Source: Lobosporangium transversale
Taxonomy: Eukaryota
Length of the DNA: 64,000 bases
Reading direction: 5' to 3'
Assembly: GCF_002105155.1 (NCBI RefSeq)
Contig: NW_019028982.1
Coordinates: 1,178,001-1,242,000 of the forward strand
The notes below the pieces were generated by a model. It was not told where the DNA came from and searched no databases. It saw nothing but the letters and a program-made list of their open reading frames with translations. This document shows positions 26,428 through 37,747 of this stretch, piece by piece. The position numbers were made by a program, and so were the translations under genes. Numbering within the stretch: position 1 is the stretch's first letter; the number at the start of each line of letters is the position of its first letter.

Positions 26428-28441
26428 CTAAACGGGCTCAGCTGGAGCCAGGGGAGCATTAGGCACACACCAAAATCGGACACGATTATCATTACCACCA
26501 CTAACGATAGCGTTCTCAGCCGGAGAGGCTGAAATGGAGCGAATGACACCCTCTTGACCAAAATAGCGCTTCAACAAGGTGCCTGTGCGAGAGTCCCAGC
26601 AGACGATCGTGTTATTGGACTCATCCGAGCTAAAAACAAAATCCTCATTGTAGGAGAAGACAGTAGATTGTTTAACTGCCTTTTGAGCGGCGCCTTGGAA
26701 TCCATGGATAAGTTTACCGGAGCCTAAATCCCATAATTTGCTTACAGAATCCCAACCGCCTGATAAAATGTATTTGCCATTCTTGGAGATCGTGGCTGTG
26801 GTGACACCTTTACCTGAATGTGCATTTTCGATCGTCCGTACAACTTTTCCTGCAATAGCATCCCAAACTTTAATGGAACCGTCTTGGGATGCAGTGATGA
26901 ATACAGACCCCGTAGACGCATATTCGATATGATTGATACCTCCACGATGTGGACCCTGCTGTTGCTGTTGAGCCGCAATGTCGACAGAAGATGTTGAGGC
27001 TGAGGATGGTGTATGTTGTGGAGGGCCTGTGAAGGCTCGGGGAGTGAAGCATTGAAGGGTTTTGACATCAAAAATCCGGACAGTCTCGGCTTCCGAACCA
27101 ACCAATAGAAAATCGCCAGACGGGTGGAATGAGATTGAGTTGATGGGATGCGAGTCCTATGCGTTATTAGAAAGAAAAGAGGAGTGAGGATGCTATAAGA
27201 GGAAGGAAATATTTAAGCTTGGTCGCTTTTAACCTATGAAAGGTAGTATGTGAAGTAAGTTTGCCTTGGTTTCATGAAAATTCTTACCTGAAGGTATCGA
27301 AAGGATCGCTTCACAGAAGGTTTTGAAATATCATACAGCTTAACAACGGTGTCTGAGCTTGCTGCAAGCACCAAGCCATTAGGGTGAAAATCAACATCTG
27401 TCACAGGCTAATAAAAGGAAGAAAAAAAAAAAAAAAAAAAAAAAGGCGTCGTTATTTTTAAGATGATCATAAAGATCTACGAGGAAATGTAGAAAGTATT
27501 TGATTAGAAGCCTAGTAATCTTACAGTCTCATGATCATAAAGTGTGCGGATGACCGGATGTACATCATCACTAGCTTGTTTCATTTTATTCACATCCACA
27601 ATTTTGAGTGAGGAATCTGCAGAACCTGAGGCTGCGTATCGTCCGTCTCGGGTGAACGCTGTACAAGTCACTGCCTCCTTGTGTGTTGTTGTATGAACCA
27701 TATTGAGCGTGGGCGGATAAAGTGGCGATGATTTCGGATCGGTATCCAAGTTTAACCGTGTAAGGTTTGATCCTACTTCAAGGTCGTCATCTTCATCCAT
27801 AAATTGAGATGCCTCCACTTTGAAGTAGTCTGTGGGCTCAATTTCGACAGATTCCTCTAGATCAATTAAAGTCCCCAAAAAAAAATATATATATATATAT
27901 AAATATAAACATGCACTTTATTGCCACTGATAATTCAAAGATACTGGATCAATCTCTAACGAAAGATCTTACCGCGGGCAATGTACAGCATTTCACTGAG
28001 CTGAGAACTAGGCTTGATAGATGCTGATGTATGTGTTTGTTCAGCTACCATGAGTGCCAACTAAATAGAACAAAGGCCGTTCACCCATATGCGTTAGGAT
28101 AAGGTGATTATTTTCGGTCAATCCAAACATGCCTTTGAATACTCTATTATCCGTTTCTTAGAGTGTAATTCCTTTCCCCGTACCTGTGCATAGCCATATT
28201 CAGCAAGTTGGCTATAAGTCAAAAATATGAACATAACAGTCGTATAGAATGCATTGATTAATACACAATTGAAACACCAGGATCAAAGTTTGAATCCAGT
28301 GTTTATTTACACATACGTCTTTTTCTTCCACCAGGCCATGAGCATGGGCAACCAAGACACAACATGAACATGTTACAAATGTTACCTCACGATCAGAGGA
28401 ATGACCTCCTCTTGCCGCATCTGATTAGGTTCTGAAGGCAT
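26428..28441 (-). CDS. CSTF1: Cleavage stimulation factor 50 kDa subunit (N-terminal dimerisation domain plus WD40 repeats), ~450 aa
   Basis: Exons 28441..28386, 28211..28184, 28060..27973, 27856..27525, 27407..27288, 27156..26428 (1353 nt). N-terminal LIVSQLAEYGY; HKEAVTCTAFTRDGRYAASGSADSSLKI...HPVIRTLYDH matches the CstF-50 pattern; further WD repeats TASQDGSIKVWD and SGGWDSVSKLWD. Confidence 0.9.
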
Positions 28442-28593
28442 AATACTTGTTTCAAGTTAGAAGTTATCCTGGCTTTATTTTTCTTCCTACTACGCTCCTG
28501 CTCCTGTTTCTGTCCTGGAAATTTCGTAAAAGAGTTGTCCCATGGTGGAACGGGAGATGCCTTGAATCAGTGTGGCTTTGGAAAGATAAGTAA

Positions 28594-28956
28594 TGTTGGT
28601 TTTAGTTTTAGTCACGTGTAGAGGGTTCGCCACCAACTATTTAACGAGCAACAGCTCAGGAAAATCTGGCTCCTTGTTCCTTATTTTTACACAAGAGCCA
28701 TTTGAGTACTGACTGTTCTCGTCCAGGTAAAGAGCCCTCACAACGTTCGTCGTTAGTAGCCATAGATCATTAAAGGTTCCTTATTTTTACACAAGAGCCA
28801 TTTGAGTACTGACTGTTCTCGTCCAGTCTTCGAGTAGTGTGTGTGTGTTCTTTTATTGTGTTAGAATTATTTATCTATCAGCTGGAAGTGACCGGCTTCA
28901 TAATCCACCAAAACGACCTAAATCTCCTACCACATCTGCCCCTAAATTTTGCAACA
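28594..28956 (+). repeat. 5' LTR
   Basis: TGTTGG...GCAACA; identical by eye to 35176..35538. Contains TATTTAA at 28638, a 51-bp direct repeat (28676..28726 and 28776..28826), ATTAAA at 28769 and a GT-rich tract at ~28837..28854. Confidence 0.97.
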
Positions 28957-28963
28957 ATATTTC

Positions 28964-28981
28964 TGGTGATCTACGCAGGGG
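28964..28981 (+). other. tRNA primer-binding site
   Basis: TGGTGATCTACGCAGGGG, 7 nt after the 5' LTR. Its complement reads as a tRNA 3' end (T-stem CCTGC, acceptor strand GTAGATC, discriminator A, CCA). The tRNA isotype is not determined. Confidence 0.75.
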
Positions 28982-28993
28982 GTGGCAGCTACA

Positions 28994-31900
28994 ATGTCTT
29001 CCAATTTATCGATTCTTCTTACCATGATCCCGAAGTGGCCGTCGGCAGAGGCTGAGGGTCTAACCGCCGCGACATGGATCAGCGATTTTGGAGGTGTTAT
29101 CGAAGGAGAAACCCTGAGCAACAAGTTGATGTTCGTCGAGAGGCAGGCGACAGGCAAGATCCAACGCTGGATCAGGCGCTGGAGGATGACAAACAAGACG
29201 AATGGTGCCTGGAGCCAGTTCGTCAGCGATTTCATCATGGAGGCCTCTACCCCTAGAAGCCAGGATGTCACCCTGGACGAGTTGCATTCTATTAAGCAAG
29301 GAGAAGATGAGACGACAGCCAACTATGTACAACGAATGAAACTTACCATGGAACTCCTCGACCCAGAGTCTGGTTGCGACGCACAGCCGTACAAGATCCC
29401 AACAGCCACCGAGCGTCTACTGGCGTACAGATTTTGCAAGGGTTTGAGGCAAGACCATCCTTTCAAGGTCAAGAACAAAGAAGCGCCTGCGACCTTGAAG
29501 GAAACCTTCGAATCAGTGACACAATTGGTTGAAGGAAATCGTTGGGGCATTGACACCACTGAGAGCCGTGTCATAGCTCGCAGCAACGCTGAGCATGCTG
29601 CACCAATCGAGACGAATGTTCTGCTTGGATCGACCCTAGTGCCGAGGACGCACTACTCTGGCTTCCTAGCGGACTTCAAAGACGACAAAGAGAAAGTTAA
29701 TCAATTAAGCGTAGACGAATTAACAGACATGTTCGGAGCCTGGACCCTTGCTGCCGAGGAGCGAACTCCGGAGGCGCGAATCGCTCAGACTATCTCAAGA
29801 ATGAGCCCGGCTGTAGCGAGGCGAGTGTTTGGTTCCTCTGAATTGGCCAAGCATATTAGAGTGGAGGCTAGACCTAATGCCGTGCTCCAACCCGCCGAAG
29901 TTCGAAGTCAGCAGGCTATCCCTATGGCCCGTAGAACCTGCCATAAATGTAATCAAGAGGGGCACCTCTTGTCGTTCTGCCCATTGGTGGAATGCTTCCG
30001 ATGTGGCGAGCGAGGCCATACTTCGAAGGTTTGCACTAAGGAACAAGGAAGCCCCGCCACAGGCGCCAATAGCGTCCCATTGGCCACTCAAACTAACTCC
30101 TCGCTAAGAGTGCAAAGTTTAGAAATCTCCGCCACTAATGTCGCCCAATCATTTATCACGACTAAGCCACAGCGATTAAATTCGACAGGTGCCCAGCGAC
30201 GTCGCAGTGAGAGGACAGGCACTCCTGCAGGTCCATCGTCTCAACGAAGAGAGGAAACGAGAGGCACTACTCCACCTGTCCGAGGAATGCAGTGGGAGGC
30301 TGAGGCATCCACTAGTAGTGCGCAACCTTCTGGGGACCCCCACTTCCAGACAGTGACTTTTGATGACAGAGCGGTCGACGGGCGAGAGAATAATGTTGCA
30401 GAAGCTCCAAATGCGACGCCAAAGCGTACCAGGAAGCGCGTCATTCCTGATCCAGTGTTCGTTGATGCGGTCGAAGGATTGAATTTTGATTTGGCCACTC
30501 ACTCCAAGTACCGTGGAAAGATGGCAGTGCAACTCAAGGCAGCTGTTACCGAGGCCTGGGCCCGCCATGCCCCTCCAAGAAGAAGCAAGCCTAAGAGGAG
30601 TCAGTCAGCAATAGCTATGGCCAGGAACGTTCAAGGTGGCAAGGGTGATGTCACGACCGTCACCGCCTTGGGACGAGACTTCAACAACGCCGTTATTGAT
30701 CCAGGCAATGACCATACTATGATGGGCCTACATGTGGCAAACGCACTCGGACTGAAGTTAGAGCCTGCTACTCGTGCGGTGCTATTAGCCCATGGGTCCT
30801 TCCAGAAGCTTGCGGGCCGCACAAGACCTATCGATATTTATGTGTCCGGGATCCCCTTGAGAATGTCGATGGGAGTGATCGACTGTAAGGGCACATATGA
30901 CTTCCTCCTTGGCGATGACTGGCTCAAGGCGCTGAAAGCCAAGGCTGATTGGAGCAACGGTATCGTGTACTACGTGGAGAGTGAGGGAAGGACTATCACC
31001 CTTGGTGGCGGTCTAAATGTTCGCGCCTCAACCCCTCAGCCTACGACATCAACGTACTTGTCTGATGAGAGCGATGAGTATGATGATGAGTACGACGACT
31101 ATGAGGATGACGAATCAATCTACGAGACGGAAGAATCCGATGCTGATGCAGGGTACAGAGCCTTGAGAGTGAAGACAATAGAGGTTGGTGACCCGGATCT
31201 GCAGGCGATGACCGCAAGAGTGTTCTCTAGCAAGATACAGTGCGAGAATGACGATGCTCGCGTAAAAAGGCAGCCGTTCGCGGTTGACGGAGTCAACGTG
31301 GACATCAACCCAAATTTGTCCAATGAGCAATACGGACAGATTGTGGAGTTACTTGAAAAGAATAAGGACAGGCTGACTACCAACCTTGAGGACCTCGAAG
31401 TGACGTCTATTTTAGAACATGAGATCAACATTCAACCAGGCGCCAAGCCAGTGTACGTAGGATGGTGCAAACGGTACTCGCCGAAGGAGCTTGACTTCCT
31501 TAAGAAGAGTGTTGATGATGAGCTTAAGGCAGGAAAAATCATAGAGATGGAGAGCGAGTGGTGCGCGCCGCTGAGTCTTGCTCCTAAGAAAGACGGATCC
31601 TTGCGCAAGTGCGTCGCATACATAGGCCTAAATAAGGTTACCGAAAGGGAGAGCTGGCCACTGCCAAACATCGAGGAAATACTTGACAACTTAGGCGGAT
31701 TCGAGTACTACAGTAGCCTGGACGGATTTCAAGGTTATTACGTGATTGGCATCAAAAAAGAGCATGTCAAGTATCTTGGCTTCCGTACGCCTTTTGGGAC
31801 GTTTGCATACAAGGTAATGCCATTTGGGCTCAAGAACGCGCCACATACCTTCAGTCGCTTCGTTAGAAAAGTGTACTCAGACCTTATCGGAAGAGTGCTT

Positions 31901-34537
31901 GAGGCGTACATGGACGATGTGTGCGTGCGCACGATGACCTGGGGAGAGCATTTGAGAGCCCTCGATCATACGTTTGCGGCAGCTCGCGCAGGAGGAGTCA
32001 AGTACAAGACTAGTAAGCTCCATTTCGGGTATGACAAGGTGAAGTTTACTGGCCACGTGGTCGGCAAAGATGGAATTGAGGTCATGCCAGACAAAGTTGA
32101 CAAGGTCAAGAATTTCACCCCATTACGTAGCAAGGAAGATGTACGTGCATTCTTGGGCTTGACGGGCTACTATCGAAGGTTCGTCGAAAGCTACGCTCAG
32201 ATTGCAGAGCCGCTGACGAGGCTCCTCAAGAAAGGTGCAAGCTTCACCATGGGTCCTGAACAGGTGGCCGCAGTAAAGGGTCTCAAAGCCAAGTTAATTC
32301 AAGCTCCGGTACTTAAGGCTCCAGATTTCGAGAAGGATTGGGTGGTCTCGTGTGACGCCTGCAAATACGCTATGGGCGCAGTGCTAGAACAAGAAGATGA
32401 GGAGGGTAAGTTGAGACCGGTCTACTTTTACTCGAAGACCTTTCAAGGAGCCGAACGCAACTACTCTACCTTTGAGCAAGAGTGCCTCGCCGTTGTCATA
32501 GCCGTCAAGAAGTTTCGGCCTTACATCCTGGGTAGGTCCGTTGTCGTTTACACAGACCATGCGCCACTCAAATGGTTGTTTTCCAAGACTGATCTGACTG
32601 GTCGACCTGCGCGGTGGCAGATGATTCTGTCGGAATTCGAGCTGGTCATTAAGACCAAACCAGGTACGAAGAACGGCAATGCAGACGGGATGAGTCGCAT
32701 TATGTCGGAAGGAATAGCCACGGATGACATCGATGACGAGGTGCCAGAGTGTCTGAGCCGAAGGGCAGAATCCACAGGAGAAAAGTGGCTGGCGAGCCAA
32801 TGGTACGCGAACTTCTACATGTACCTAGCCGAGATGAGACTGGAGTTAGAAGACAAAGTTGAAATGAGGAGGATCAAGAGACAGGCATACAGGTTTCGAC
32901 TGACGAAGGAAGGTGACCTACTGTATAGAGATGCCGACAACAGAGAGAAGAGGTGCGTAGTTGAGGATGAAGTCGAAGGTGTGCTGAAGGAGGCACACGA
33001 CAAGGGCGGTCACTATGGAGCAGAGTCTACCCTAGCAACAGTTCGTGACGTGTGTTGGTGGCCAACGATGAGACGGGATGTATTCCACTGGGTCAAGTCT
33101 TGCGGCCGTTGCCAGCAATTTGGAAGTCGAGTGAAACATAACAGGTTGCATCCTACGGTCTCCGAGTTCCCATTTGAAGTTCTCTTCGTTGACTTGATTG
33201 AGAACTTAGTCGAAACGCCTAGGGGGATGACCACCATAGTCGTCTTCACAGATTCCTTCACCAAGTGGACTGAAGCACATGCAGTGGCCAACAAAGGCGC
33301 GCAAGGCGTCCTAGCTGTTCTATTTATGAAGATTATCTGTCGGTTCGGGCTCCCTGTTATGATTAGATCGGATGGAGGCCCCGCATTTCGTAACGAATTC
33401 AAGACTTTCTGTGACCTCTGGGGGATCAAGCACGTCACTGGTTCGACAAGGCATCCGCAAAGTCAGGGACAGGTCGAGGCGACAAATAAGCTTATCGAGG
33501 AGCGACTGAGGAGAGTACTGCCAGCTGGATCTAAGGATTGGGATGCATTCCTACCGAAAGCAGTATTCGACGTGAATTGTCGAGTCGTTAGGAGCACAGG
33601 AGTGTCGCCAATGGAAGCACTTATGGGCTACACAGGACAGTCAGCGTTACGGCGACTGTTCGCGGACGACAAGTTCCTCGTTTCAGCAGAGGCACCGGAA
33701 GAGAACGATGTAGTCCTAGAAGAAAGCATGGCGAGATTTATCGTAAGAAGAGAGGGAATCCGTGAGTATGCATACTCATGCAAGCTTAATGCCAATGACA
33801 GGATGAAACGTTACTATGATCGACGTGTTCGCCCACAATCGTTCGAAGTAGGATCAAGGGTTTACATGTTCAATTTGGATTTCGTCACAGGCTTTGGACG
33901 CAAGCTGGAGCCGCGTTGGTTAGGTCCATTTGAAGTAGTCTGGGCGAATGAAAAGGGATCATATGGGATCAAGACGGGTCGAACGCATTATGGCACAAAG
34001 GATGGGGTAGAAACAATTAATGGAGACTTCCTCAAGCTCGCAACTCAAAGGCAACGATTATGGGAAGATGATTTTATTGAGAACCTACAGAGAGCTACTG
34101 AGAAGAATCCCCACTACGCCGACACCGAACAACCTCTCGCGCCAGATCAATTACACCAGCCAAGTCTGGGTCGGGGGCGGGAGGACACAGCAAACGAAGG
34201 CACTCCAATCCAATCTCCACATCCCTTGTCGCCAAGGACAGGTCAAGCTCAATCTCGTGACGCTCCTCAGGCGCAAGTTGCACCTTCCGTGAACGAAGCC
34301 TCTCGCGAAGACGCGACTGGTCAGCCAAGCCTCTGGAGAATGCCACCTCGCCGTGAAGAAGATACTTCGCCCGTACGCGTTTCTCAATTGGCTCGTCTAT
34401 GTCTTGAAAGGCCTCAGCTGACCGCTTATTTAGCTCTCGAGCGGGGGGGGGAACTGTCTGGGACTGAGGAGATTCTGGAGAAGACTTCTCCGCTGCAAAT
34501 GGCGAAACAGAGGAAGGGCCAACCTCGTGGTCAGTAA
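28994..34537 (+). CDS. Single-frame Gag-Pol polyprotein, 1847 aa
   Basis: Two CCHC knuckles (CHKCNQEGHLLSFC, CFRCGERGHTSKVC); protease AVIDPGN; RT KVMPFGLKNAP and YMDD; RNase H CDAC...YSTFEQECLAV...YTDH; integrase HDKGGH...CGRC, VDLI/SDGG/QVEATN and the GPF motif KLEPRWLGPF. No chromodomain seen. Confidence 0.95.
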   Translation: MSSNLSILLTMIPKWPSAEAEGLTAATWISDFGGVIEGETLSNKLMFVERQATGKIQRWIRRWRMTNKTNGAWSQFVSDFIMEASTPRSQDVTLDELHSIKQGEDETTANYVQRMKLTMELLDPESGCDAQPYKIPTATERLLAYRFCKGLRQDHPFKVKNKEAPATLKETFESVTQLVEGNRWGIDTTESRVIARSNAEHAAPIETNVLLGSTLVPRTHYSGFLADFKDDKEKVNQLSVDELTDMFGAWTLAAEERTPEARIAQTISRMSPAVARRVFGSSELAKHIRVEARPNAVLQPAEVRSQQAIPMARRTCHKCNQEGHLLSFCPLVECFRCGERGHTSKVCTKEQGSPATGANSVPLATQTNSSLRVQSLEISATNVAQSFITTKPQRLNSTGAQRRRSERTGTPAGPSSQRREETRGTTPPVRGMQWEAEASTSSAQPSGDPHFQTVTFDDRAVDGRENNVAEAPNATPKRTRKRVIPDPVFVDAVEGLNFDLATHSKYRGKMAVQLKAAVTEAWARHAPPRRSKPKRSQSAIAMARNVQGGKGDVTTVTALGRDFNNAVIDPGNDHTMMGLHVANALGLKLEPATRAVLLAHGSFQKLAGRTRPIDIYVSGIPLRMSMGVIDCKGTYDFLLGDDWLKALKAKADWSNGIVYYVESEGRTITLGGGLNVRASTPQPTTSTYLSDESDEYDDEYDDYEDDESIYETEESDADAGYRALRVKTIEVGDPDLQAMTARVFSSKIQCENDDARVKRQPFAVDGVNVDINPNLSNEQYGQIVELLEKNKDRLTTNLEDLEVTSILEHEINIQPGAKPVYVGWCKRYSPKELDFLKKSVDDELKAGKIIEMESEWCAPLSLAPKKDGSLRKCVAYIGLNKVTERESWPLPNIEEILDNLGGFEYYSSLDGFQGYYVIGIKKEHVKYLGFRTPFGTFAYKVMPFGLKNAPHTFSRFVRKVYSDLIGRVLEAYMDDVCVRTMTWGEHLRALDHTFAAARAGGVKYKTSKLHFGYDKVKFTGHVVGKDGIEVMPDKVDKVKNFTPLRSKEDVRAFLGLTGYYRRFVESYAQIAEPLTRLLKKGASFTMGPEQVAAVKGLKAKLIQAPVLKAPDFEKDWVVSCDACKYAMGAVLEQEDEEGKLRPVYFYSKTFQGAERNYSTFEQECLAVVIAVKKFRPYILGRSVVVYTDHAPLKWLFSKTDLTGRPARWQMILSEFELVIKTKPGTKNGNADGMSRIMSEGIATDDIDDEVPECLSRRAESTGEKWLASQWYANFYMYLAEMRLELEDKVEMRRIKRQAYRFRLTKEGDLLYRDADNREKRCVVEDEVEGVLKEAHDKGGHYGAESTLATVRDVCWWPTMRRDVFHWVKSCGRCQQFGSRVKHNRLHPTVSEFPFEVLFVDLIENLVETPRGMTTIVVFTDSFTKWTEAHAVANKGAQGVLAVLFMKIICRFGLPVMIRSDGGPAFRNEFKTFCDLWGIKHVTGSTRHPQSQGQVEATNKLIEERLRRVLPAGSKDWDAFLPKAVFDVNCRVVRSTGVSPMEALMGYTGQSALRRLFADDKFLVSAEAPEENDVVLEESMARFIVRREGIREYAYSCKLNANDRMKRYYDRRVRPQSFEVGSRVYMFNLDFVTGFGRKLEPRWLGPFEVVWANEKGSYGIKTGRTHYGTKDGVETINGDFLKLATQRQRLWEDDFIENLQRATEKNPHYADTEQPLAPDQLHQPSLGRGREDTANEGTPIQSPHPLSPRTGQAQSRDAPQAQVAPSVNEASREDATGQPSLWRMPPRREEDTSPVRVSQLARLCLERPQLTAYLALERGGELSGTEEILEKTSPLQMAKQRKGQPRGQ

Positions 34538-34811
34538 GGGCAACCACCTCAGGAGAAGCAGAAGAAGGGGGAGTGACAACGACGGCAGGAGCAGGAACAA
34601 CGGCAGGAGTAGAAGAAGAAGCAGAAGCAGGAGGAGTGGTAGGGGTCGAAGGAGTGATAGGAGAGTGAGAAGTGACAGCAGGACGCGACTCTGGAGACGT
34701 GCCCAAAGACAGACTTAAGCTCTTGTCTGAAGAGGGAAGCATTGTCTTGGTGGAAGTGGTTGGTCTTGGGCAAGGAGGAACCTCGTCTTTCTTAATAACA
34801 GTGCGGGCCAT
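34095..34811 (-). CDS. Putative antisense accessory ORF of the retrotransposon, 238 aa
   Basis: ATG GCC CGC at 34811, TAG at 34095. S/P/T-rich N-terminal half, KRSAEAFQDIDEPIEKRVR (bipartite NLS-like), and a helical C-terminus. Overlaps 443 nt of the pol 3' end. Confidence 0.6.
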   Translation of the reverse strand: MARTVIKKDEVPPCPRPTTSTKTMLPSSDKSLSLSLGTSPESRPAVTSHSPITPSTPTTPPASASSSTPAVVPAPAVVVTPPSSASPEVVALTDHEVGPSSVSPFAAEKSSPESPQSQTVPPPARELNKRSAEAFQDIDEPIEKRVRAKYLLHGEVAFSRGLADQSRLRERLRSRKVQLAPEERHEIELDLSLATRDVEIGLECLRLLCPPAPDPDLAGVIDLAREVVRCRRSGDSSQ

Positions 34812-34874
34812 GATGACGATGAAGTAGTTCAAGCAGGGCAAGGAGGAAGGAGTTGCGAATGAAAAAAAAAAAAG

Positions 34875-34911
<37 letters not shown>

Positions 34912-35167
34912 AATGGAGGAATGAACCAACATTTATGTCCATGGCAACATCATCATGTGGAAGTAATGGCGTGATCACGGATCAAAATGATTGGCCGAAG
35001 AAAGAAAATTTTCCTTGGTCGATGCCAAGGCGAACCAAAGGGTGACAAGAACAATGATGCAATGACCAAAATGCGGGGTAGCAAGAGTCAAGGTGGTAGA
35101 AGCGCAAACAGCACAATGAGTTTCTTTCTTTTTGAGCTGCGGCTTGGCGGAGCCGAACTTCGCAGCT

Positions 35168-35175
35168 GGTGGGGG
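35168..35175 (+). other. Short polypurine tract (GGTGGGGG)
   Basis: Immediately precedes the 3' LTR TG; preceded by the inverted repeat AGCTGCG (35135..35141) / CGCAGCT (35161..35167). Confidence 0.6.
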
Positions 35176-35538
35176 TGTTGGTTTTAGTTTTAGTCACGTG
35201 TAGAGGGTTCGCCACCAACTATTTAACGAGCAACAGCTCAGGAAAATCTGGCTCCTTGTTCCTTATTTTTACACAAGAGCCATTTGAGTACTGACTGTTC
35301 TCGTCCAGGTAAAGAGCCCTCACAACGTTCGTCGTTAGTAGCCATAGATCATTAAAGGTTCCTTATTTTTACACAAGAGCCATTTGAGTACTGACTGTTC
35401 TCGTCCAGTCTTCGAGTAGTGTGTGTGTGTTCTTTTATTGTGTTAGAATTATTTATCTATCAGCTGGAAGTGACCGGCTTCATAATCCACCAAAACGACC
35501 TAAATCTCCTACCACATCTGCCCCTAAATTTTGCAACA
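35176..35538 (+). repeat. 3' LTR
   Basis: 363 bp; identical by eye to the 5' LTR. Confidence 0.97.
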
Positions 35539-35590
35539 GTAAGTATGCATTGCCCCTTAATCTTTGGGCTAAGCTTTTATGTAGAGCTTT

Positions 35591-35730: not shown

Positions 35731-36508
35731 GTCAGTGAGCGTTAGTGCAATGCACATAAGTACAAGCTGGTGACGAGCCTATATGTGTACCTGAACTTCG
35801 TCCTTAACAAAACTTGACAACCTTAATCGTCAAATAAGCCACCACATGGTTGTAGCGGGTCCGGATCCTCAGTAGGACTCAGGAAGGCTCCATGAATTCC
35901 TTGTAAATAATTAAATACATTGACGATCCTTTGATACCGCTGTATACCGTTCTCTTTATCTGGCCTCATACTGTCCTCACAGTCCTGATCGCCTTTATGA
36001 TCTGGAGCTATTATTGGCAATGGGACGGCTTCTTAGGAAATTGTTCCTGCGATTATCCCATCATGAAGCTCAGCAGAGACCTCTTGAGCAGTATTTTCTA
36101 AGAAATCTCAATGATGCGACGAAGACAAAGTAAGACAGGAATATACATGTATATAGATATATAAACGCATTTCATTCGAATTAAAGAGGTTCAAGATTAT
36201 TTTTAATTAAATATCAAAACAGGGAGAGTTTTGTGTTTACTGTGACCACCTACTCTAACCAAAAAAGGAATGACCACGATTGAGCTACTGCATGCATCCT
36301 CCTGAACACTGTGCATGGCGAATATAAAGGAGGGGGAAGATCAACGCCAATATGTTGGTTGTTTGATTGTTTCCCTAAACCCTATAATACATACACCTCA
36401 ATTGTTTTTTTTTTCTAATCCCACTCACTCGTGAATAACACTATTATTACGCCACGTTCATCGCCCAACATCCACAAGTCATACATTCCGACACAAGCCC
36501 AGGCGCAA

Positions 36509-37747
36509 ATGCAAGCACAAAAGAGGATTTGTCCTTTTGAACTTCCTGAAATTTATTTCCATATTGCCTATTACCTCACTAGTGCTGAGCTTGCCTTATG
36601 CTCACGCGTCTGTAAGAGTTGGTGCCATGCGTTCATACCGATCTTGTGGGAGAATGTTCGCGTTTGTTCATCCAACTCTCAAGGAGACTCCCTCCCGGTT
36701 CCACCTTGGAATGCTCTCCATCGGTACTCAGCTCTTATTCGTACTATGGAGCTCCGTAACGATTTTCCTGGACTGTATGACCTAGAGTTCCCTTCAATCC
36801 AAAAATTGACGGTCGAAAGCACTCGAGTCGTTCCCTTCGGAGATACCGAACTCGAGTTTTACCGTGACCCTGTAGGCCTCATTGTCCGAAATCATTCATT
36901 GCTGCAACTCAATCTCTATCGAATGCCTGAGCTGTATCTACGTCAGGGACTATGGCTCAGGCTGGCTAATCAATTCGATCATCTTAGGGAACCTTACATA
37001 TATGGCGGAAAGCTTCCTTCAGGTAGTGTAGGGGTTTTTTGGCGAGCATGCTCCAGACTTGAAAAGCTCGAGCTACGGCTCCTAGAATTCCCGCGAAACG
37101 AGGGTATTCCATATGATTTGGTACTATTCCCTCAAATGCGCGTTCTCGTATTGCATATGGTCAAGATTTCGGAAGATATAGTCACTCGATGTCCGGGCCT
37201 GTCTGATCTCACTTGGAACGATATTGAGCCTCTGCCGTTGTTTCAAGACGTAGGTTTTCATCAATTACTACTAGTTGAAAGAGGAGGAGGAATATTTTGG
37301 TCGAGTATGAAGAATGTGTGCCTAGGATATCTTGTGTCTGACCGACAAATTGCTGCGCTACTAAATGCGATGCAACAGGCAAAGTCACTCAATTTCCCCG
37401 CCACATCCTTCGGATCCTTTGCATTTCAAGCACTTGCCATCAAACATTTCGGTTCATTGAAGGATATTGACTTGCAGGGATGCGACAGTGTAGGGAGCCC
37501 GATGTTGTGTGAAATCCTCTGTTCATGTCCCATGCTGGAGGAACTCAAAGGGGATTGGATCATCGCCAAAGATGTTATGCAGAATAAGCCGTGGGTCTGT
37601 CTCTCGCTGCGGAAGTTAAGTTTGGTCTTTTTGATAGAGCAGTGCAACATTCATATCAAAGTCGTGATACAAGAACGCTTGTATAGTCTACGACAACTAG
37701 AGCAACCGCATCCACAGTTTCGAGTGATCTTATATAATGCACTGTGA
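36509..37747 (+). CDS. F-box / leucine-rich-repeat (RNI-like) protein, ~412 aa
   Basis: Intronless. N-terminal F-box-like PFELPEIYFHIAYYL...CSRVCKSW...PILW; LRR-like CSRLEKLEL, RCPGLSDL, SCPMLEEL, PWVCLSLRKL. First ATG is at 36509. Confidence 0.85.
   Translation: MQAQKRICPFELPEIYFHIAYYLTSAELALCSRVCKSWCHAFIPILWENVRVCSSNSQGDSLPVPPWNALHRYSALIRTMELRNDFPGLYDLEFPSIQKLTVESTRVVPFGDTELEFYRDPVGLIVRNHSLLQLNLYRMPELYLRQGLWLRLANQFDHLREPYIYGGKLPSGSVGVFWRACSRLEKLELRLLEFPRNEGIPYDLVLFPQMRVLVLHMVKISEDIVTRCPGLSDLTWNDIEPLPLFQDVGFHQLLLVERGGGIFWSSMKNVCLGYLVSDRQIAALLNAMQQAKSLNFPATSFGSFAFQALAIKHFGSLKDIDLQGCDSVGSPMLCEILCSCPMLEELKGDWIIAKDVMQNKPWVCLSLRKLSLVFLIEQCNIHIKVVIQERLYSLRQLEQPHPQFRVILYNAL

Follow-up and report, generated by a model that had tools for sequence, protein, structure and literature searches.

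To understand how an LTR retrotransposon could be spliced and still pass on its intron, the element at positions 28594-35538 of the window (the whole stretch of DNA analysed, 64 kb) was investigated. Intron loss is the accepted signature of copying through RNA; to our knowledge, Penelope-like elements are the cited exception, and we know of no established mechanism for them. The region is a single intact Ty3/gypsy LTR retrotransposon and a recent insertion. It is composed of the following parts.

28590-28593, plus strand: target-site duplication GTAA, with the right copy at 35539-35542
28594-28956, plus strand: 5' LTR, 363 bp, TG...CA, same letters as the 3' LTR
28964-28981, plus strand: primer-binding-site-like sequence (TGG...), 7 nt past the LTR end
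28994-34537, plus strand: gag-pol ORF, 1847 aa, with Gag, CCHC knuckle, protease, RT, RNase H and integrase
35168-35175, plus strand: G-rich polypurine-tract-like run, directly 5' of the 3' LTR
35176-35538, plus strand: 3' LTR, with repeat copy 1 at 35258-35308, spacer at 35309-35357 (ATTAAA at 35351-35356) and copy 2 at 35358-35408

The element thus has LTRs in direct orientation, their ends being TG...CA, and a target-site duplication, as Ty3/gypsy elements do, and its gag-pol is one ORF with no frameshift. The Ty3/gypsy domain order Gag-PR-RT-RNase H-integrase is present in this element and also in L001, one of 18 loci obtained when a metagenome was scanned for relatives. Around the primer-site-like TGG, 36 of 37 nt are common to the window element and L001 (positions 115-151) despite their diverged LTRs. 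A start 7 nt past the LTR end is a greater distance than usual, and no tRNA gene was found within the 64-kb window. Among named relatives, an Entomortierella parvispora protein is the closest (68% identity over the RT-integrase part), which makes a Mortierellaceae fungus the probable host. Some relatives at 41-43% (P0005, P0006 and P0010) carry the extra precomputed domains PF00692 (dUTPase) and PF22769. At 28831 and 35413, both LTRs of the element have C, a state consistent with one recent reverse-transcription event; all contigs of runs X2, X3 and X6 that align there have T, which also makes up most of the depth in X1.

The first-pass annotation had described an exact 51-bp direct repeat in both LTRs, its copies 100 bp apart and flanked by splice-like signals. 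All four copies were recovered, at 28676, 28776, 35258 and 35358 (period 100); the 51-mer occurs nowhere else in the 64-kb window, and the repeat extends 0 bases beyond either end. The signals named alongside it, TACTGAC (28707 and 28807), GTAAAG (28727), ATTAAA (28769) and TATTTAA (28638), likewise all lie where they had been placed. The module in the 5' LTR reads as follows.

28638-28644, plus strand: TATA-like TATTTAA, 38 nt upstream of copy 1, putative promoter element
28676-28726, plus strand: repeat copy 1, predicted first exon and start of R
28727-28826, plus strand: candidate 100-nt intron GTAAAG...TACTGAC...CAG, consisting of a 49-nt spacer and copy 2
28727-28775, plus strand: unique spacer, with the donor at its start and ATTAAAG at its end
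28769-28774, plus strand: ATTAAA, predicted poly(A) signal, beginning 7 nt 5' of copy 2
28776-28826, plus strand: repeat copy 2, forming the 3' portion of the candidate intron; predicted first-strand landing site
28837-28848, plus strand: GU-rich tract at the start of U5, present in L001 too

The predicted branch A of the candidate intron is 28812. Copy 1 itself also contains a branch point, pyrimidines and CAG, with GTAAAG directly 3' of it. The two LTR pairs are the only exact, non-low-complexity repeats of at least 18 bp with a period of 30-400 in the 64-kb window. A relaxed triple signal, defined as CTRAY 6-30 nt upstream of YAG|GTR, was found at eight of 127,900 positions on both strands of the window, a frequency of about 6 in 100,000, and two of the eight are the LTR sites. 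This rarity speaks against a plain LTR duplication, enhancer-like or of the R region, that arose recently in each lineage and bears splice-like motifs by chance. Plain duplication could appeal to retroviruses, in which the copy number of 50-75-bp LTR repeats is variable (PMC3187697). Here, the copies are split by a unique spacer and are not in tandem, which also argues against it.

The credibility of the splice signals was assessed against spliced host introns. RNA run X6 contains six minus-strand spliced joints, two inside pol and four in the neighbouring host gene, a WD40 gene of which four introns are spliced in this run. The six introns are 86-174 nt long, and their donors are GTAAGA, GTAAGA, GTACGG, GTAACA, GTATGT and GTAGAG. 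Matches of the candidate donors to U1 are 7/9 in the window element and 6.5/9 in L001, compared with 5.5-8 for the six introns; the candidates are thus comparable with host donors, as U2-type introns should be. The candidate intron lengths of 100 nt (window) and 80 nt (L001) compare with 86-174 nt, that of L001 being slightly below the six seen. The spacing of branch point, pyrimidines and YAG is host-like, with TACTGAC in the window element and AACTGAC in L001 placing CTGAC 18 and 17 nt from the end, respectively. TACTGAC is nearer to the textbook branch point than that of any of the six introns. GTAAAG had also been claimed as a donor of host introns at 923 and 53120, and for this claim reading-frame logic is the support: in these two cases, a 131-nt intron with a GTAAAG donor joins two long ORFs and a 126-nt one completes a CCHC knuckle. 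The first nine bases of the host intron (923-931) and of the LTR candidate (28727-28735) are identical.

We consider it probable that copy 1 of the 51-bp repeat serves as a first exon and copy 2 as the end of a short spliceosomal intron, which would be spliced and rebuilt in each round of reverse transcription. Transcription would start at or near copy 1, about 38 nt past the TATA-like box. In the 5' LTR the cap-proximal donor would be used, and 28727-28826 would be removed together with ATTAAA. In the 3' LTR the donor, far from the cap, would lose to ATTAAA, and the RNA would be cut about 10-30 nt into copy 2. Minus-strand strong-stop DNA, templated by copy 1-U5, would then pair with the incomplete copy 2 that terminates the RNA. 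The parent's copy 1 would thereby become the daughter's copy 2, the intron would be restored and the copies would stay identical. Exon 1 would carry a branch point since this exon supplies the acceptor for the following generation. If the strong-stop DNA landed on the inner copy 1, a 263-bp single-copy LTR would result.

The proposal that strong-stop landing on copy 2 rebuilds the intron proved workable in a simulated cycle, which restored both LTRs exactly at all six cleavage points tried. A mark placed in copy 1 moved into copy 2, and a mark in copy 2 was erased; when splicing was omitted, the mark remained in copy 1. A jump onto the inner copy gave single-copy LTRs of 263 bp and 260 bp. The simulation shows that the model is coherent, not that the cycle occurs. 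In the standard cycle, each repeat copy keeps its own lineage. Splicing combined with strand transfer, as simulated, predicts concerted evolution that is bounded exactly at AG|GT. Direct repeats are lost in reverse transcription, at 41% per cycle for 110 bp in one report (PMC3187697), and because of this instability the persistence of the repeat implies selection or regeneration.

The prediction of concerted evolution could be examined in L001, which encodes a 1660-aa polyprotein with a Pol 56% identical to that of the window element over 1701 columns. By blastn, the LTRs of the two elements do not match except for the last few bases. The LTR plan is nevertheless the same: L001 has a 77-nt U3, TATAAAG 36 nt upstream of copy 1, a 55-bp exact repeat that differs in sequence from that of the window and ends in ACTGAC-pyrimidines-TAG, GTATGA after copy 1 only, and a U5 start that is GU-rich as in the window element. 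Its spacer is 25 nt long, and TATAAA, a variant of AATAAA, begins 7 nt 5' of copy 2. The hexamers ATTAAA and TATAAA are thus both at -7 from copy 2, with donor-to-hexamer distances of 42 nt (window) and 18 nt (L001). The repeat units are homologous (35 of 48 aligned positions identical, a score reached by 0 of 5000 shuffles) and are the best conserved LTR segment between the two elements, the last 30 nt reaching a z of 4.3 compared with 2.3 for U3, 2.6 for U5 and 3.0 for the spacer. The spacers are weakly homologous (6 of 2000 shuffles).

Between the window element and L001, the repeats differ by 13 mismatches and three indels, and the copies within each element are identical. Co-variation of the two copies within an element, as forecast by the first-pass annotation, is therefore what was found. 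The pattern indicates that the copies evolve in concert, with the boundary exactly at AG|GT. L001 resembles a collapsed contig with a 123-nt terminal overlap; as this overlap is longer than the repeat, the repeat itself is unlikely to be a product of assembly. Given L001, the module is clearly not due to chance, with the comparison resting on two families of shared ancestry, which are not independent draws. An exact repeat module bounded by AG|GT was found in none of the other 17 metagenome loci, most of which are distant or lack whole LTRs. L002 is a shortened pol without an LTR; L003 and L004, which are more distant from the window element than L001, have LTR-region repeats (84% in L003; 97.5% and 78% in L004) that have drifted and lack AG|GT ends. 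No relatives were found among viral contigs, either by protein or by two DNA motifs. A single 20-mer match in one bacterial genome, from the prokaryote genomes, was taken as chance.

Plain duplication is already weakened by L001, as two families with only 56% identity would both have to show these boundaries, the GT that follows copy 1, the hexamer at -7 and weakly homologous spacers. Diverged LTR copies in the host species appear to be single-copy, which could be the ancestral state that such a duplication would start from. Weighing these points, we regard a plain duplication as very unlikely. The self-rebuilding intron is the best single explanation because it accounts for the AG|GT boundaries, the conserved branch point, the fixed hexamer and the concerted evolution.

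The donor-to-hexamer distances also bear on a different reading, in which the donor is a U1 landing site without productive splicing that suppresses ATTAAA in the 5' LTR, and the copies are homogenised by template switching: reverse transcriptase would sometimes skip from copy 2 to copy 1 during strong-stop synthesis, and the product would land on the 3' copy 2. The donor does lie upstream of the hexamer in both families. Suppression by U1 at a donor upstream of a poly(A) signal was demonstrated in foamy virus (PMC3694450), and retroviruses often switch templates between direct repeats (PMC3187697). U1 binding offers no reason why conservation is strongest at the branch point-pyrimidine-AG end, or why each of the two families has its repeat boundary precisely at AG. 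If template switching were only occasional, erosion of the repeat's 3' end would be expected. Moreover, a U3-dependent fold of the foamy type, which would hide the 3' donor, was not found by predicted folding (61/100 and 34/100 shuffles were as low or lower). We consider U1 binding without splicing unlikely. For the self-rebuilding intron, the lack of such a fold means that the asymmetry between the 5' and 3' ends rests on cap-proximity. In the favoured model, the donor of the 5' LTR would be recognised through its nearness to the cap, and that of the 3' LTR would compete with the poly(A) signal. Cap-proximity as a basis for donor choice is an assumption drawn from general knowledge. Premature polyadenylation can also be avoided without an intron, by a poly(A) signal placed in U3; since that placement solves the same problem, this avoidance would be a weak reason for the design.

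The single ORF suggests another role for the module. Elements with a single gag-pol ORF need a way to make excess Gag, and copy 1 in the 3' LTR could be an acceptor for a subgenomic RNA, for example a Gag-only RNA, or could serve to define the terminal exon in which the poly(A) signal lies. The absence of a frameshift in gag-pol fits such a route, as do stops in the spacer, which occur in all three frames in the window element and in two of three frames within the spacer of L001. A strong internal donor shared by both elements, in contrast, is absent: three and two sites score at least 7, of which 0 are at homologous columns. An acceptor role of this kind would also leave unexplained the GT after copy 1, the second copy and the identity of the copies, and it appears very unlikely.

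The single-copy LTRs predicted for landing on the inner copy, and likewise forecast by the first-pass annotation, are present in DNA, with a joint 28656/28785 in runs X1, X2 and X3. In X2, U3 letters are joined to a copy 2-U5 match, with loose ends at 28785. Among the pieces listed for X2, one spacer sequence was found at a likeness of at least 80%, without variants and at a depth of 153.5; the main U5 contig has a depth of 174.7 and a single locus about 9, depths that do not represent true copy number. LTR copies that have diverged, recognisable by 28683 A>C and 28823 C>T, have a depth of about 71-73, and no spacer matching them was found at the same likeness among these pieces. Single-copy LTRs may have arisen by separate collapse of individual old copies; the alternative, multiplication of a lineage without the spacer, would imply that the intron is dispensable.

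RNA run X6 consists of assembled contigs of the 31-mer type (Logan contigs, presumably k=31). K-mers shorter than k=53 do not set the joined form apart, and these contigs cannot reveal the LTR junction; they show presence, not absence. X6 has no coverage over bins 28732-28791, which comprise the spacer and the start of copy 2; these bins are covered in DNA run X2. At 28683 and 28823, every X6 contig has the letters of the LTR copies that seem to be spacer-less in DNA, and the gap is therefore not evidence of splicing. RNA that started at copy 1 and was then spliced is letter-identical to RNA that started at copy 2, and the letters of the 28726/28827 junction also arise from single-copy genomic LTRs or from template switching in vitro. 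For these reasons, a read across 28726/28827 is not diagnostic.

Splicing on the element was observed for antisense RNA only. Two GT-AG introns lie on an X6 contig covering 28931-32824, and an antisense ORF was found further along.

31718-31848, minus strand: antisense intron in pol, 131 nt, spliced in RNA run X6
32384-32469, minus strand: second antisense intron in pol, 86 nt, spliced in RNA run X6
34095-34811, minus strand: antisense ORF, 238 aa, no Pfam family

The element makes a processed antisense transcript. The 238-aa ORF has a Pro/Ser-rich start and a charged end, and it overlaps a 150-aa Pol extension that is absent from the relatives. A second X6 contig (32919-34810), from which strand and level are not given, ends at the start codon of this ORF, and a long T-run on the minus strand lies just upstream of it. 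The module might thus serve antisense transcription, as a promoter or 3' end, with the plus-strand splice signals being incidental. Spliced antisense RNA does cross pol, and a minus-strand donor-like hexamer at 28741 and a minus-strand AATAAA at 28857 were found. The conserved signals, however, read on the plus strand, and L001 has the module but no counterpart of the antisense ORF (the longest in its last 900 nt is 58 aa). As L001 keeps the module without this ORF, the two are separable, and an antisense function of the module is highly improbable.

The self-rebuilding intron was further compared with known systems. Canonical Ty3/gypsy elements (Metaviridae, U3-R-U5) share the domain order, LTR ends and target duplication, and the primer-site-like sequence and purine-tract-like run would correspond to theirs; they differ in that here the RNA ends would share R only after splicing, with R templated by a separate upstream copy. 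Penelope-like elements such as Drosophila virilis Penelope and Chlamys-3_cRei have a leader intron in the pseudo-LTR, a short intron near the start like the candidate here. The Penelope leader intron is reported to be 75 bp long, to begin 46 bp after the start site and to be needed post-transcriptionally for reporter expression (PMC2377424), and intron retention in Penelope-like elements is called highly unusual and of unknown significance (PMC8557442). By analogy with the reported leader intron, a likely benefit for the present element would be that its genomic RNA goes through splicing, with consequences for export and translation. Penelope-like elements differ in having a GIY-YIG endonuclease, no integrase and no tRNA-primed strand transfer. 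The window element has a DDE integrase and RNase H and no Pfam match to the GIY-YIG family; with integrase present and GIY-YIG absent, it is not a Penelope-like element. Moreover, no duplicated first exon is described for Penelope in the accessible parts of these reports, and splicing was demonstrated in Penelope, whereas here it is predicted from sequence.

In foamy virus, the 5' and 3' LTRs make different use of a donor that precedes the poly(A) signal (PMC3694450). The same arrangement inside an LTR is found here at the level of sequence, with a putative poly(A) signal. Suppression in foamy virus is described as independent of splicing, with a U3-dependent fold blocking the 3' donor (PMC3694450); the window element differs from foamy virus in lacking such a predicted fold and in having an LTR acceptor, duplicated upstream of the donor. 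In split-intron retroviral vectors (Ismail et al. 2000), a splice site copied from LTR to LTR assembles an intron, according to a review (PMC3182074). These vectors share the use of reverse transcription for intron assembly but are artificial, one-way and vector-disabling; the donor and not the acceptor is copied, and the intron does not renew itself. The HTLV-1 LTR segment of hybrid promoters has a donor and an acceptor inside and is active in vectors (10.1101/2023.01.28.526022); no duplicated exon and no regeneration are described for this intron in the accessible part of that preprint. No description of a self-rebuilding LTR intron was found in the literature searched, with subscription journals largely outside the search.

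If the self-rebuilding intron is real, the acceptor half of an intron would be written in exon 1 and re-pasted behind the donor by first-strand transfer in each cycle, the RNA that is packaged and reverse-transcribed would be the spliced RNA, and R would become a split element. Reverse transcription would then have a natural route to create introns rather than remove them. The layout offers a concrete mechanism by which an LTR element is spliced yet passes on its intron, and it can be tested with one marked element. Such a test is within reach, as the element is intact and recent and its relatives are in culturable fungi. The mechanism would also be relevant to vector design, to the gain of introns through reverse transcription and to the ways in which retroelements profit from splicing. 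We lean slightly towards the wider claim that fungal LTR retrotransposons have here a general way to inherit a spliceosomal intron via an RNA intermediate.

Finally, the surroundings of the insertion were inspected. In all four runs, loose ends were found at 28956-28960, where two to three contigs from other loci run into ATAT. At these loci ATAT follows the LTR end, so that an ATAT-like target may be preferred; at the window copy the sequence is GTAA. The insertion lies immediately upstream of the WD40 gene (window positions 26428-28400, minus strand), and an F-box/LRR gene is located downstream of it at 36419-37747.
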